Assembly: GCA_016927155.1 (NCBI GenBank)
Contig: JAFGNE010000047.1
Span: forward strand, 1 to 30,077
Direction of reading: 5' to 3'
DNA length: 30,077 bases
Source of the DNA: Candidatus Peregrinibacteria bacterium
GTDB taxonomy: Bacteria; Patescibacteriota; Gracilibacteria; UM-FILTER-43-11
Below, in pieces: positions 19,741-24,373 of this stretch. The notes under the pieces were generated by a model that was not told the DNA's origin, searched no databases, and worked only from the letters and a program-made list of their open reading frames with translations. The position numbers were made by a program, and so were the translations under genes. Each line of letters begins with the position of its first letter. Within the stretch, counting starts at the first letter, position 1.

Positions 19741-21531
19741 ATGACGTGGAAGGAGGTCATTGACCGCCTCGGCAACCCAAGCGAACAAACGGAAATAAAA
19801 GAATTCAAAGTCGAATTTCCAAAGGAACTCGAAACGCTGGAACGTTCGCGTTTTTTTGAAAAAGTCCGTGAATTCGCCAATGGCTGCATCCGGATTCCCG
19901 AATTCCAGAAGGCCGCGGGCATTGGGGAAAATTTCGGCGAAAGTTTTTTGGAAATGGTCACCAGCAATGATTTTTCCGAAGCGGACAAAAACGACCCTAT
20001 TTATGCCAAACTGCTCGATCTGGCCCGGATCAAGAATGAGATGGTCCGTGATATCGCGCTTGATTACCTGAAACACCGCGGAGACGGATTGGGGCTAAAA
20101 CCGCATGAAACCGTAATTTTGGAATACCTCCTCCAGCTTATTCCCGTAATGGATCGCATGTACATGCGCTGGAGGAAAGAACTTTACCCCGCGGCCCTGG
20201 CCAAAAAACTGACGGACCTCCTGGATTCGGAAACGGAATCGGCTTTTGACCACTTACAGGCACAGGGGCTTTCTGACCCTTACGCCATCGTGCAGGAAGC
20301 GGAAGGCAAACCGATCGCGGTCCCTTATGGCGTCGCTTTCGCCGAGGAAACAGCCGAAGCCGACACCTTATTGGCCGGTCTGGTGATGGCGCTTAACGGA
20401 TTAAAAGAAAAAACAGAAAATCAGGCCGACATCGCAGAAATTGAAACGTATATTTTTTATTTCGCTGCCTTACAAACGGCCTTTAAATGCGAAGAATCCA
20501 AAAAGGAAGGGGACGATTGGCTATCGGTTAAGTTATGGAAAGAGGTGGACAAGGCCTGGCTTAAAACCCAGGGCCGACTCCAGTTGGTCCATTCCATTGA
20601 GGCCGGTTACGGCGGCATCGACCCAACGGAAACCAAAGTGATCCCCGAATTCAAAATCCTGCTTGTGGACGAATCCGCCGGCGGCGAAGCGCTGGAAATT
20701 CTAAAAAAAATGAGGGAAGAAAACATGGAGGTTTTGGCGCCGCTCCTTCCGGAACAGGTAAAAGGCAGGCTGGAAGTGATCCGCCTTTCGCTGGTCGGGC
20801 CTTTTTCCATCGTACTGGCCGGAGGCAATTCACTGGATAATCTTGGCATCGCCCAAATGGGCCCCAATTACGGCGACATCGCTTCTATGGGGGTGAAGTC
20901 GTTTCTTGACGCCGCCTCTTTCGCGGAAACAGACGCTTCGCGCGCGGCTTCAATAGAAGGTGTGCTGGGGATAGAGGCCGCTCAAACCTATTTCCCTTAC
21001 GAAACAAAACACGAAGACTTGCTTTTGGCCGAACTCATCGCCTCGCATGAGATTTCTCATGCCGTGCTTGGAGACCTGGGCACGCTGGATGAAGTGCACG
21101 CCACCTGGATGGGGCTTGTGGCTCTTTTTGAAAGGGAAAAAACGGGCAAGGTGGAGGCGGCAACCGTAAATGTGATCCTGAAAGAACACATCAAATACAG
21201 CATCAAATACCTTTCCGACGCCAGCCATGACGACCGGTATTACATCGAAGGGGCGATCAACACGAAGCTGATGCTCCAAAGCGGGCTTCTGGCGCGGGCT
21301 GACGGTAAATTTTCCCTGGATGAAAAAAATTGGGGACCATTCAAAAAACTTATCGGGGAACATTGGGCGGAAATGGTCCGCCTGCACGCGGCCGGCGGCA
21401 GGGGATTAAAAACTTTCGCGAAAAACCTCCAAAAAGCGGATGACGCCATAAAAGAAGTTGCCCGCCTGGCCGTTGAAGGCGTGCAGGCTTACAACGAAAA
21501 CACCAAAAAGGAGATTCTCGGATCAAAATAA
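19741..21531 (+). CDS. Zincin-like (HExxH) protein resembling CiaB / peptidase M49-like families
   Basis: SHEISH...LDEVHAT zinc-ligand arrangement. WKEVDKAW...LQLVHSIE and AQMGPN...GVKSF blocks recall Campylobacter CiaB (from memory, not searched). Confidence 0.6.
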   Translation: MTWKEVIDRLGNPSEQTEIKEFKVEFPKELETLERSRFFEKVREFANGCIRIPEFQKAAGIGENFGESFLEMVTSNDFSEADKNDPIYAKLLDLARIKNEMVRDIALDYLKHRGDGLGLKPHETVILEYLLQLIPVMDRMYMRWRKELYPAALAKKLTDLLDSETESAFDHLQAQGLSDPYAIVQEAEGKPIAVPYGVAFAEETAEADTLLAGLVMALNGLKEKTENQADIAEIETYIFYFAALQTAFKCEESKKEGDDWLSVKLWKEVDKAWLKTQGRLQLVHSIEAGYGGIDPTETKVIPEFKILLVDESAGGEALEILKKMREENMEVLAPLLPEQVKGRLEVIRLSLVGPFSIVLAGGNSLDNLGIAQMGPNYGDIASMGVKSFLDAASFAETDASRAASIEGVLGIEAAQTYFPYETKHEDLLLAELIASHEISHAVLGDLGTLDEVHATWMGLVALFEREKTGKVEAATVNVILKEHIKYSIKYLSDASHDDRYYIEGAINTKLMLQSGLLARADGKFSLDEKNWGPFKKLIGEHWAEMVRLHAAGGRGLKTFAKNLQKADDAIKEVARLAVEGVQAYNENTKKEILGSK

Positions 21532-22215
21532 GATTTTACGGCCGAATATTTTTTTCATCAGGCTTTGCAAATCCGGCGGCAGGGGCGCTTCGACGGCAAC
21601 GGATTTTCCGGTTAACGGATGCCGGAAAGAAAGCGAGCGCGAATGGAGGACCAGGCGGCCGAACTGGAACGTGGTGCGGAATTTTTTATTGAATTTTAAA
21701 TCACCGTAAACGGAATCGTTGATGACCGGGCATTTGATCTTGGCGAAATGGAGGCGGATCTGGTGGCGGCGGCCTGTTCTGATTTCCGCCTCCACAATAG
21801 AACAAACCTGCTTAAAAAGATCAAAGGTGTAAATGACCTTAAAGCGCGTCTCGGCGGGGACAAGTATTTTCGATTCGCGCGCAGGCACGGGGAAAGTGAG
21901 TTTTTCGCCGTGAGGGACGCCTTTTAACATGGCCAGATATTTTTTATGGGTATCGGGCGCCTTAAAAATGGCCTCAAGGGGTTTGCGGTCTTTGGCATAT
22001 TTACCAAAAAGGATCAGGCCGGAAGTCTGCGCGTCCAGCCGATGGAGCAGGTAAGGCGTGAATTCCCCGCCTTTGAATTTTTCCCGCGCCATGCCCATCA
22101 CGGTTCGCGGGAGCTTGGTTTTAGGATCAGGCACGGAAGGAATTCCCGCCGGCTTGTTCACCGCGAGCAGATATTCATCTTCATAAATAACCGGAATAAG
22201 GTCTCTTTTGGGCAT
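21523..22215 (-). CDS. RluA-family pseudouridine synthase
   Basis: AVNKPAG, catalytic HRLDAQTSG, TGRRHQIRLH, DSVYG and LHSRSLSFRHP motifs. Confidence 0.92.
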   Translation of the reverse strand: MPKRDLIPVIYEDEYLLAVNKPAGIPSVPDPKTKLPRTVMGMAREKFKGGEFTPYLLHRLDAQTSGLILFGKYAKDRKPLEAIFKAPDTHKKYLAMLKGVPHGEKLTFPVPARESKILVPAETRFKVIYTFDLFKQVCSIVEAEIRTGRRHQIRLHFAKIKCPVINDSVYGDLKFNKKFRTTFQFGRLVLHSRSLSFRHPLTGKSVAVEAPLPPDLQSLMKKIFGRKILF

Positions 22216-22234
22216 GGCTCAATGATAGCATAAG

Positions 22235-22260
22235 AAAAAAGGGCTGGAACAAACCAGCCC
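22235..22260 (-). terminator. Rho-independent terminator after the small Cys-rich ORF
   Basis: Minus strand GGGCTGG-TTTGTT-CCAGCCC followed by TTTTTT. Confidence 0.8.
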
Positions 22261-22276
22261 CAAAATTCGGATCAAA

Positions 22277-22450
22277 TTAATGCCCTGCGTAACCGCTGCA
22301 AGCACAAGCCCCATTGATGATGGGGTGTTTACAGCGCTCGCAATGGGGGAATTTGGAATCTTCTCGTTCATCTTGGCGCTCCTTATCGCCTCTTTTCTCA
22401 CTAGACGTCTGTGGCTGAACCGTGGACTCTTTACGCTTCAATTCCGCCAT
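22277..22450 (-). CDS. Small (57 aa) protein with CxxC...CxC putative zinc-binding tail, not in the ORF track
   Basis: MAELKRKESTVQPQTSSEKRGDKERQDEREDSKFPHCERCKHPIINGACACSGYAGH. AGAAAGGA lies 7 nt before the ATG and a terminator follows the stop. Confidence 0.65.
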   Translation of the reverse strand: MAELKRKESTVQPQTSSEKRGDKERQDEREDSKFPHCERCKHPIINGACACSGYAGH

Positions 22451-22536
22451 GGCTGGTTCCTTTCTCCGAATTTTTAAAGACCAGGCTCTCCCATTCCGGG
22501 AATCCGACGCGCGGACTTTGCCCTGGATCCCAGGAC

Positions 22537-22627
22537 AAAAAACCCTTCCCTTCCGGGAAGGGGCTAAGTTGATAAAAAACGGACAGCATCAACGCAACCT
22601 TTTCCCGGAAGAAGAGGAAACGTGATG
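22537..22627 (-). promoter_or_regulatory. Putative ribosome-dependent transcription attenuator overlapping the 3' end of the trpR-like gene
   Basis: Terminator CCCTTCCC-GGAA-GGGAAGGG-TTTTTT (22562-22537). Mutually exclusive antiterminator pairing 22611-22588 with 22573-22550. Protector hairpin 22627-22587 begins at the His-His codons. Confidence 0.7.
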
Positions 22628-22906
22628 GCCCAAAACCAAATTGTATCCGCCTTCGCCATTATTGAGCCACCAGGCCACGCGGGCGACGGTGGTGGTGCTG
22701 GCGCCGGTTTTTTTGGAGATAGCGCGGTAAGGAAGGCCTTGTTCAATAAGTTGGGCCGCCTCGAGACGTTCGCTCATTTCATTGAGCTCGCGCAGCGTGG
22801 CTACATCCCGTAAAAAGGCGGTGACCTGTTTTTCCGTCTTCAGGGCGGCAAGGGCCTTGCAGAGGTTACTGAAACCCGGATTTTGCTGGAGTGTTTTTTC
22901 AATCAT
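22589..22906 (-). CDS. YerC/YecD family TrpR-related repressor
   Basis: FLRDVATLRELNEMSERL..A..I..G.PYR.I..KTGASTTTVARVA.WL..G.GGY signature. Confidence 0.92.
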   Translation of the reverse strand: MIEKTLQQNPGFSNLCKALAALKTEKQVTAFLRDVATLRELNEMSERLEAAQLIEQGLPYRAISKKTGASTTTVARVAWWLNNGEGGYNLVLGHHVSSSSGKRLR

Positions 22907-22907
22907 A

Positions 22908-22953
22908 GTATTATTGTGTTAACACATTAATACAAGCCGGCAAAAAAAGTCAA
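22908..22953 (-). promoter_or_regulatory. Promoter with overlapping 26-bp palindromic operator candidate
   Basis: Minus strand TTGACT (22953-22948), 16 bp spacer, ATTAAT (22931-22926). Palindrome GTATTATTGTGTTAACACATTAATAC (22908-22933) has a single mismatched pair. Confidence 0.65.
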
Positions 22954-22975
22954 TAGGATTTTTTAGGAGGGATTC

Positions 22976-23695
22976 CTAAAACGTCAGTAACATCTGGTTT
23001 TTCCTCAGCCATTTTTTCCGTTGCTTGTGGTCGGGAACCGTTTCTTCCACCAGCGCCCAAAACCTCCGCGAATGGTTCATTTCCTTAAGGTGGCAAAGTT
23101 CGTGGACGACCACGGAATCGATGATCTCGATGGGCGCCATGATGAGCCGCCAGTTAAAGTTGAGGTTGCCGGCGCGGCTACAGCTTCCCCACCGGGTTTT
23201 CTGGTTGCGGAAAGTGACTTTATGGTAGCGGAACCCGTAATGCTCATTCCAATGTTGTAACCGGTCGTGGATCGTTTCGACGGCCTTTTTTTTATAAAAC
23301 AACTCGACCATTTTTCGAACGGTGGGCGCGGGATTCGCCAAAGATTCGTGGACTCCGACGACCATTTTATCGCCCCGGACTTTAATGGCGGGCCGGCGCT
23401 TTTTGGAAAGCCGGATGACGAGCGTTACCGGTTCGCCGAAATAGTAAAACGTGTCGCCATTTTGGTATGTGGGTTTTTGGCGCAAAGCTTTTTGCTTTTC
23501 CGCTTTCAGCCAGTTTTTTTCTATCCACCGGCTGTGCTGGTTTAAAAATGTCTCAACGTGCTTTTTGTCGGCGAGCCAAGGGGCGGTGAGCGTGAGTTTG
23601 CCCTCGCCGTCCATCCGCAAACATAGCCGCCGCGCCTGCAAACTGCGACGGAAAACGACAGGGACGCGGCGCTGGTTGATGACAAGGACTTCCAT
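22976..23695 (-). CDS. YgjP/DUF45-like (M48/SprT-type) zinc-dependent hydrolase
   Basis: QKTRWGSCS, LNFNWRLIMAP, VVVHELCHL (HExxH) and NHSRRFW motifs. Confidence 0.9.
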   Translation of the reverse strand: MEVLVINQRRVPVVFRRSLQARRLCLRMDGEGKLTLTAPWLADKKHVETFLNQHSRWIEKNWLKAEKQKALRQKPTYQNGDTFYYFGEPVTLVIRLSKKRRPAIKVRGDKMVVGVHESLANPAPTVRKMVELFYKKKAVETIHDRLQHWNEHYGFRYHKVTFRNQKTRWGSCSRAGNLNFNWRLIMAPIEIIDSVVVHELCHLKEMNHSRRFWALVEETVPDHKQRKKWLRKNQMLLTF

Positions 23696-23722
23696 GGACT
23701 TACGTTACCATGAGGATAGGCT

Positions 23723-23751
23723 TTGATTAAGCCAAAAAATAAGGTTAAACT
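23723..23751 (+). promoter_or_regulatory. sigma70-type promoter for the Yip1-methyltransferase pair
   Basis: TTGATT (23723-23728), 17 bp spacer, TAAACT (23746-23751). Supports a gene start at 23780 instead of 23723. Confidence 0.5.
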
Positions 23752-23779
23752 GGTTCCAGTATTTTTTCACACCAAAACC

Positions 23780-24373
23780 ATGAAAAACATTGTTTCCGAA
23801 CTCAAGACCGCCCTGCAGGTCATTTTATTCAATGAAAAGGCCATGCATGAAGTGGCGGCGGATAAAAATAAGACAAAATTCGGTTTCGCTGTCATCATCG
23901 TGGCGGCCTTTTTGGGCGTCATCGGCCAGCAGCTTTTTATGGGCTGGCTCAAGCCAAGCTTTGGCTACGGCCTGATGATGGGGGTTACACAAATTATCGG
24001 CGTTACTATCGGGATTTACGTGATCAGTTTTGTCGCGGTCAAAATTTTTAAGGGCCAGGTAAAACATGATGCGTTTTTCCGTGTGGCGGCTTATGGCATG
24101 CTTTTGGGATGGGCCAGCATTATCCCCATGCTCGGCATCATTTCGGCATTGTGGGGCCTCGCCCTTCTTTTTGTGATCCTTACCAAAGTACATAAAGTTA
24201 CAGTGGGCGGGGCCATCGGCACTATCCTCATCAGCCTGGTGGTCCTGATGGCCGTTTCCGCGATCCTCTCCCCTGCCATGAGCCGGTTCGGTTACAAAGC
24301 GGGCATGGGCGGGGCCATGAATTATCACTTGAATATGGGGCCTAATTCCTACAACTTCCAAATCAATCCCTAA
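23780..24373 (+). CDS. Yip1-like multi-pass membrane protein
   Basis: About five TM helices with Yip1-type spacing (...F..E.AM.EVA.D...T..G...II; FKGQ......FRV.AY). Start at ATG 23780. Confidence 0.65.
   Translation: MKNIVSELKTALQVILFNEKAMHEVAADKNKTKFGFAVIIVAAFLGVIGQQLFMGWLKPSFGYGLMMGVTQIIGVTIGIYVISFVAVKIFKGQVKHDAFFRVAAYGMLLGWASIIPMLGIISALWGLALLFVILTKVHKVTVGGAIGTILISLVVLMAVSAILSPAMSRFGYKAGMGGAMNYHLNMGPNSYNFQINP

Follow-up and report, generated by a model that had tools for sequence, protein, structure and literature searches.

The 3′ end of a HisR-type repressor gene as a candidate leader of a histidine attenuator in a Peregrinibacteria genome

Introduction

The hisL and trpL attenuators of Escherichia coli and Salmonella, represented by the families His_leader (RF00514) and Trp_leader (RF00513), carry cognate codons upstream of a terminator, together with an antiterminator that overlaps the 5′ arm of this terminator. 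A ribosome that stalls at the cognate codons leads to readthrough, while a ribosome that reaches the stop codon, or the absence of translation, leads to termination. The leaders themselves are dedicated peptides of 14-30 residues, with seven His codons in the case of hisL; their RNA comprises four to six segments, and they gate genes of the corresponding pathway. In the E. coli trp operon, repression by TrpR and attenuation at trpL sense the same amino acid, in its free form and as charged tRNA, the repressor gene being unlinked and the leader separate. Longer open reading frames (ORFs) can also act on the gene that follows them: in the SecM-secA and MifM-yidC2 pairs, a stall near the 3′ end remodels the downstream mRNA and switches on the next gene. 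SecM and MifM stall as arrest peptides in response to secretion or insertion; their effect is on translation initiation, and their products are not known to have another function.

A leader product can have a role beyond attenuation, as is the case for peTrpL from Sinorhizobium meliloti, a 14-aa attenuator leader peptide that also acts in trans in an unrelated role (PMC7298713). With regard to repression by histidine, the YerC protein of B. subtilis has been named HisR, and histidine-stimulated operator binding has been shown only for the HisR of Ruminococcus gnavus (PMC9413887). HisR and His-leader attenuators are presented there as alternative systems that belong to different lineages (PMC9413887).

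In the present work we analyse a hisR-like gene located in a stretch of 30,077 nucleotides (hereafter the window) from a Candidatus Peregrinibacteria bacterium, whose small genome, recovered from a sediment metagenome, amounts to 915 kb in 99 contigs and is 90% complete. The gene resembles the HisR system (B. subtilis YerC; PMC9413887) by its family, by a palindrome on its own promoter and by the his genes that neighbour it in relatives, but here HisR and a His attenuator are apparently found in one gene, whereas the HisR proteins of Firmicutes have no His tail. With hisL and trpL it would have in common the cognate codons, the antiterminator overlapping the terminator 5′ arm and the outcome of a stall. 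However, the leader would be a 105-aa repressor, by its sequence a functional transcription factor, with two His codons in place of seven and three RNA segments (a closing segment, an antiterminator strand and a terminator), and the gated gene in this genome is not a his gene. Compared with the E. coli trp operon, the repressor gene would here be both the first gene of the unit and its leader. In contrast to SecM and MifM, the proposed stall would depend on codons and on tRNA charging and would act on termination, and the product would be a repressor. As for peTrpL, the leader product would have a function of its own, in this case that of a full-length DNA-binding regulator of the same pathway. 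A full-text search of the literature found no description of a repressor gene that serves as its own attenuator leader.

Results

The hisR-like gene and its promoter region

The hisR-like gene (22589..22906, minus strand) encodes a protein of 105 residues, including a 12-residue tail that opens with two adjacent histidines (HH). Profile searches matched the protein to PF01371 (Trp_repressor; E = 2.6e-19, 69.5 bits for a cut-off of 27) and to TIGR02531 (YerC/YecD; E = 4.6e-19, 68.6 bits for a cut-off of 42.2), while the TrpR equivalog TIGR01321 remained below its cut-off (22.9 versus 67.25). As judged by these profiles, the protein is a TrpR-family repressor of the HisR/YerC type. Its nearest solved structures are 3FRW, 3G1C and 3KOR; 3G1C, a protein from Eubacterium eligens, is the HisR structure used by Ashniev et al. 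2022 (PMC9413887). The AlphaFold model has a pLDDT of about 95 in the domain and of less than 50 at residues 95-105; the fold of the domain is thus confidently modelled and the His tail is predicted to be disordered. The HH pair is not required for the HisR fold: it is absent from the aligned region of 3FRW and 3G1C, the two solved HisR-like structures with printed alignments, as well as from 81 of 120 family representatives, and it opens a tail predicted to be disordered.

Upstream of the gene, a -35-like hexamer, TTGACT (22948..22953, minus strand), is separated by a spacer of 18 nt from a weak -10 candidate, TAATGT (22929-22924). Read from the sequence, the hexamer would belong to a putative promoter of the hisR-like gene; a consensus promoter scan did not flag it. 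An inverted-repeat search revealed an operator-like palindrome of 26 bp (22908..22933, assigned to neither strand; 17-nt arms, 94% complementary), which spans the -10 region and ends 1 bp before the ATG. This palindrome, unlike the Firmicute HisR consensus quoted in PMC9413887, is the probable site of HisR autoregulation. No second copy of it was found in the 915-kb genome with up to 5 mismatches allowed, and given this uniqueness the putative HisR regulon may consist of a single unit. No Shine-Dalgarno-like sequence precedes the ATG of the hisR-like gene (22906), to which the palindrome is so close, and the mRNA leader may be very short or missing altogether.

Overlapping hairpins at the 3′ end of the gene

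A previous sequence-only reading of the locus had proposed that the gene acts as its own His-sensing leader. H94 and H95, encoded by CAT CAC (22622..22627, minus strand; the proposed stall site, as read from the sequence), are the sole histidines of the 105-aa protein and are followed by 10 residues and a TGA codon (22591-22589). Among the 970 long ORFs of the source genome, 1.55% have an HH pair within their last 17 residues. Downstream of the His codons, a pyrimidine-rich segment starting with TTTCC (22612..22620, minus strand), here called the closing segment, pairs with the 3′ arm of the terminator in ribosome-free folds, the long hairpin described below then reaching the U-run. In these predicted folds the closing helix, which adjoins a 4-nt bulge, is weak, with one U-G pair, two U-A pairs and two C-G pairs.

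The 5′ strand of the antiterminator (CTTCCGGGAA, GGTT and GTTGAT; 22588..22611, minus strand) contains the last 7 codons and the TGA, and its 3′ strand (ATCAAC, AGCC and TTCCCGGAAG; 22550..22573, minus strand) was located by folding and by the inverted-repeat search. CTTCCGGGAA (22611-22602) and TTCCCGGAAG (22559-22550) are exactly complementary, GGTT (22599-22596) pairs with AGCC (22565-22562) with one G-U pair, and GTTGAT (22593-22588) pairs with ATCAAC (22573-22568). The long hairpin is therefore made of three helices, 20 bp in total, parted by symmetric 2-nt internal loops. An intrinsic terminator, CCCTTCCC / GGAA / GGGAAGGG followed by T6, occupies 22537..22562 (minus strand; stem-loop 22562-22543, T6 22542-22537); its stem of 8 bp includes 6 G-C pairs, for an energy of -15.3 kcal/mol. 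The antiterminator 3′ strand consumes 5 of the 8 bases of the terminator 5′ arm, all of the GGAA loop and one further base, at the start of the 3′ arm.

The adjacent pair of His codons with no other His codon in the gene, the antiterminator of about 20 bp with symmetric 2-nt loops and its overlap with the terminator 5′ arm and loop, and the 8-bp GC terminator with its GGAA loop and U6 tail are thus all present as the sequence-only reading had described them. A further element, a "protector hairpin" formed by CATCACG and CGTTGATG, was not supported: its letters exist, but no fold contains it and nothing equivalent was seen in other clades. The closing segment (22620-22612), which pairs with the terminator 3′ arm, takes the role that had been given to the protector.

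Folding yields the long hairpin as the structure of minimum energy (-40.8 kcal/mol, z -3.08), with 1 of 200 shuffles folding as well; it is also the longest inverted repeat of the 30-kb window. Furthermore, the complementarity of the 5′ arm and loop to the 60 nt upstream was calculated for all strict terminators of the 915-kb genome. The terminator of the hisR-like gene ranks first of the 81 (z -3.9); none of the other 80 is found at z <= -3, for a background mean of -0.19 and a standard deviation of 1.06. An Rfam scan of positions 21500-23800, up to E = 1, returned no match to His_leader (RF00514).

Conservation in homologous loci

About 75 homologous loci from the same class were compared, along with three from metagenomes. 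Homologues are of three types: those with HH(H) in the C-terminal tail, to which the gene of the window belongs, those with a short tail whose HH lies within the domain (HWLHHG.GGY), and those with no HH. The 120 family representatives comprise 33 proteins with HH in the tail, 6 with HH in the domain, none with both and 81 with neither; HH or HHH tails were found in about 21 of the fetched loci. Strong predicted structure across the stop codon accompanies His codons near the 3′ end: a fold z-score of -3 or below was obtained for 18/21 tail-HH loci, 10/16 in-domain-HH loci and 3/34 loci with no HH. Pairing between the end of the coding sequence (last 45 nt) and the downstream RNA has a median z of -3.16 in His-tail loci (n = 21) and of -0.25 in the others (n = 53), a contrast whose Mann-Whitney p-value of 6e-6 treats related genomes as independent and is therefore overstated.

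The geometry is also preserved. In 12 tail-type loci with differing helix sequences, the terminator 3′ arm finds its partners at 0-14 nt from the His cluster, on its downstream side, and the 5′ arm at 14-31 nt. The stop codon is at +30 to +36 from the cluster in 9 of the 12 loci; two others, whose tails are shorter, have it at +9 and +21. Overall, the design of tail and terminator was found with other sequences in about 20 further genomes.

In a sister clade of 9 genomes, analysed with RNAalifold, the long hairpin has 18 pairs, with 93.8% of cells paired and 8 pairs double-changed; none of 500 shuffles is as high, and slid alignments are 26-46% paired. The short terminator nested in it is 92.6% paired in the same clade, with 2 double changes. 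Riboregulators are usually recognised by such a pair of conserved structures that exclude each other. The clade of the hisR-like gene itself (the window and the loci that we label L024 and L025) has too few sequences for such a test: 16 of the 20 antiterminator pairs are invariant, covariation is no better than in shuffles, and each structure has 1 compensatory pair. Searches with the protein and with the three-sequence alignment found no further close relatives in genome or metagenome contigs. At the 3′ ends of the homologues, where the sequence-only reading would be expected to leave its mark, His codons thus recur in the tails and the stems covary in the 9-genome clade, the three-sequence clade being uninformative.

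Compared with L024, 13 of 13 third codon positions are identical in the tail and 70% in codons 1-93; the nucleotide identity of the gene body is about 85% across the relatives used for the tail comparison. Both tail differences with L024 alter the amino acid (V to T and S to F), and the S-to-F change in L024 is matched by a G to A change in the partner strand, which converts a C-G into a U-A pair. Because third positions are frozen while amino acids change, the constraint on the tail seems to act on the RNA rather than on the protein. Tails across clusters defined at 50% identity have a loose peptide motif in common, HH-x-SS..GK.L., which could reflect either a protein role or shared ancestry. 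In a tree of the His-tail origins, well-supported branches force at least 3 changes; with its 90 columns it does not separate one origin from several.

Predicted folds under ribosome occupancy

A ribosome whose A site is at a His codon covers about the next 10-13 nt. Waiting at the His codons, it would hide the first pairing segment and expose the second. In the free RNA, the predicted fold is the long hairpin (-35.8 kcal/mol), with a helix that extends to the U-run and no pair of the short terminator. When the first 10 nt after HH are masked, to represent the stalled state, the best fold (-30.1) contains 0 of the 8 terminator pairs, while the best fold with the terminator forced reaches -22.9; by the time the polymerase enters the 3′ arm, pairing already involves 6 of the 8 bases on the terminator 5′ arm. 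When the RNA is masked to 12 nt past the stop codon, 8/8 terminator pairs form. These in-silico masks lend support to the earlier proposal that a stall would free the antiterminator and that a ribosome at the TGA would cover it.

The same three-way masking behaviour was found in 14-15 of 17 His-tail loci; in locus L002 the terminator is the favoured fold in all ribosome states. Loci with HH inside the domain served as control, and 10 of 11 keep the terminator whatever the state of the ribosome; for the 11th, the script took the long hairpin as the terminator. Since these controls keep the terminator in every state, the masking switch is not an artefact of the procedure. The in-domain-HH genes had themselves been candidates for the same switch and were rejected, the terminator forming in every ribosome state in these 10/11 loci. 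Eight loci of this type (L003, L004, L006, L012, L034, L039, L046 and L063) carry a covarying hairpin of 15-20 bp across the stop codon, which starts at the GGY codons about 10 nt after HH and ends 1-3 nt before a separate terminator.

The downstream slot in this genome

The terminator is followed by the leader of the downstream ORF (22455..22536, minus strand), with three small hairpins and a Shine-Dalgarno-like GGAG/AAGGA site; no promoter match was found within it. The three hairpins, which come right after the terminator U-run, are kept in L024, L025 and L002 with differing stem sequences, and loci of another family also carry a hairpin immediately after the U-run. The candidate regulated gene is a Cys-rich ORF of 57 aa (22277..22450, minus strand); no other reading frame lies between the attenuator and the terminator that comes next. 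This ORF contains the motif C-x2-C-x8-C-x-C, has no Pfam or NCBIfam match and has no homologue among 5.8 billion proteins. In L024 and L025 the same slot is occupied by a gene for a radical-SAM-like protein of about 370 aa; descent of the 57-aa ORF from that gene by decay was considered and rejected, as the two have no similarity. A second intrinsic terminator (22234..22261, minus strand) closes the unit before an RluA-type gene (21523-22215); a weak match to RyhB at this terminator (E 0.074, 25 bits for a gathering score of 55) is taken to be a chance hit.

Neither hisG nor hisD (histidinol dehydrogenase) was found in the 90%-complete source genome, and hisS is present on a contig other than that of the hisR-like gene. 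Sequence words of the locus are absent from the sole metatranscriptome of the source study.

Downstream genes in relatives and a tryptophan counterpart

In relatives, the hisR-like gene is immediately followed by hisG (about 16 loci), hisS (about 8), a hisC-like gene (5) or a hisI-like gene (2), the HisG and HisS identities being confirmed by Pfam where tested. The association of YerC/YecD genes with his genes, stated in the sequence-only reading, is therefore borne out in class-level relatives. In L119 the tail contains two His clusters; behind it come a gap of 47 nt, which corresponds to the terminator alone, and then hisG-hisD; as this gap leaves no room for a promoter, hisG-hisD must be reached by readthrough. 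Moreover, hisS lies behind a His tail in L009, and hisG in L035.

Radical-SAM-like enzymes are encoded directly behind the His-tail hisR genes of L010, L024, L025 and L079. An ATP-grasp, an AstE/AspA-type and an M15-type enzyme are likewise encoded in this position, L082, L091 and L073 also belonging to this group of loci, and small ORFs lie behind other tail-type genes. Taken together, the radical-SAM-like, ATP-grasp, AstE/AspA-type and M15-type genes suggest a variable histidine-starvation set.

Distant TrpR-like paralogues from the same class have tails with Trp codons (..WW..L.W..) and a stop codon 21-27 nt after WW. They were found at nine loci (L016, L017, L019, L023, L123, L124, L130, L137 and L140), 8 of which show the switch between stall and stop masks. 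A Chorismate_bind (TrpE-like) gene comes after the tail and terminator in L016 and L019, and L137 and L140 are followed by TrpE-like and TrpB-like genes, as judged by N-terminal motifs only. L123 is followed by a radical-SAM-like gene, and L017 and L023 by small ORFs and SLH proteins. TrpR-like members with no tail overlap trpE by 4 nt. The Trp-tail loci would represent a tryptophan counterpart, that is, an independent parallel of the His design.

Discussion

From the sequences, folds, conservation and genomic context reported here we infer, as a rather likely reading, a stall, its coupling to RNA polymerase and an outcome by which the 3′ end of the hisR-like gene would be the leader of a three-state ribosome-mediated transcription attenuator. 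The gene would probably sense histidine a second time in this way, through ribosome stalling. The unit would consist, in order, of the operator and promoter, the hisR-like gene, the attenuator and one downstream slot. With no ribosome on the tail, the whole long hairpin would form with its base at the U-run, and transcription would stop. With a ribosome at the TGA, the antiterminator 5′ strand would be covered, the 8-bp terminator would form and transcription would stop as well. When His-tRNA is scarce, the ribosome would wait at CAT CAC and hide only the closing segment; the exposed CTTCCGGGAA would then capture the emerging 5′ arm of the terminator, and the 3′ arm, left with no partner, would allow readthrough to the downstream gene. 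One gene would thus receive two inputs, free histidine through the repressor and charged tRNA-His through the leader.

The earlier proposal that a full regulator coding sequence serves as the His leader, gating here a micro-ORF and not hisG, is supported computationally by the family identity, the context in relatives, the fixed geometry, the scarcity of such structure in homologues whose 3′ ends have no His codons nearby, and the failure to find hisG and hisD in this genome. The weak closing helix at this locus means that the untranslated state may read through instead of terminating. The regulatory codons number only two and come at the end of an ORF of 105 codons, and the model needs coupling between the leading ribosome and RNA polymerase over 300 nt. 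A clear benefit of histidine control is also called into question by a gated ORF with no homologue in a genome where hisG and hisD were not found. Given that no histidine biosynthesis genes were found and that the slot holds an orphan 57-aa ORF, the switch would here be either repurposed or a recent leftover.

It could be argued that the His tail acts in the protein, through metal binding or as the tethered mimic of a co-repressor, and that the RNA is a plain long terminator or a stabiliser of the mRNA 3′ end. The ribosome-free long hairpin, which ends at the U-run in most loci, could indeed be a terminator itself, and a cognate residue in each tail, His in HisR and Trp in TrpR-like proteins, would fit a tethered ligand. 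The loose peptide motif shared by the tails of distant clusters points in the same direction, as does the fact that tail HH and in-domain HH never occur together (0/39 proteins with either), since two histidines may be needed at one site of the protein. We nevertheless hold this explanation to be unlikely, because HisR proteins that have been validated or solved do not contain HH (PMC9413887), the tail is predicted to be disordered, and its amino acids change in the clade of the window while its synonymous sites are frozen. It would moreover deprive of any purpose the nested short terminator, although this is conserved with covariation of its own, and the fixed spacing of the His codons to both pairing segments, and it leaves unexplained the presence of hisG-hisD behind a terminator gap with no promoter.

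More improbable, in our view, is a relic, in which the architecture would have been inherited from an ancestor with a hisR-his operon and would no longer work here, the 57-aa ORF not being a gene and the terminator merely ending the hisR transcript. Such a scenario would account for the failure to find hisG and hisD, for an ORF with no homologue or family match in a slot that differs from the radical-SAM-like gene of the nearest relatives, and for an operator unique in the genome. However, a relic is at odds with an antiterminator and a terminator that are both intact, and with synonymous sites fully conserved in the tail despite the roughly 85% nucleotide identity of the gene body; the leader hairpins and the Shine-Dalgarno-like site before the 57-aa ORF are also kept, and this ORF has a strong terminator of its own. 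We give hardly any credence to the hairpin being a mobile palindromic element or a chance inverted repeat, as about 20 other genomes have the same design built from different sequences and the terminator stands first of 81 by upstream complementarity. The hairpin is single-copy in the genome, the longest match elsewhere being 18 nt, and the mobile element was rejected on this ground.

Returning to the attenuator, the findings in relatives bear on the whole group. For the ultrasmall bacteria of the CPR type, we regard as evenly balanced the broader proposal that the repressor and the attenuator leader of one operon have fused repeatedly in the TrpR family, with His codons in HisR and Trp codons in TrpR-like proteins, so that a gene of about 100 codons would respond to the free amino acid as well as to its charged tRNA. 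After loss of the pathway, as in the present genome, the switch would gate a variable "starvation slot" occupied by radical-SAM or peptidase-like genes or by orphan micro-proteins.

The leaders of textbook attenuation are throw-away peptides; if the proposed mechanism is true, the last codons of a transcription factor would turn it into a compact two-input sensor. Annotation would then call for some caution, since C-terminal "extensions" of small regulators can be devices acting at the RNA level. The mechanism, if true, would also show how regulation is compressed in very small genomes. Finally, it would provide a handle on the genes that amino-acid-dependent symbionts switch on when histidine runs out, among them the radical-SAM, peptidase-like and orphan micro-protein genes of the gated slot, which are otherwise uncharacterised.
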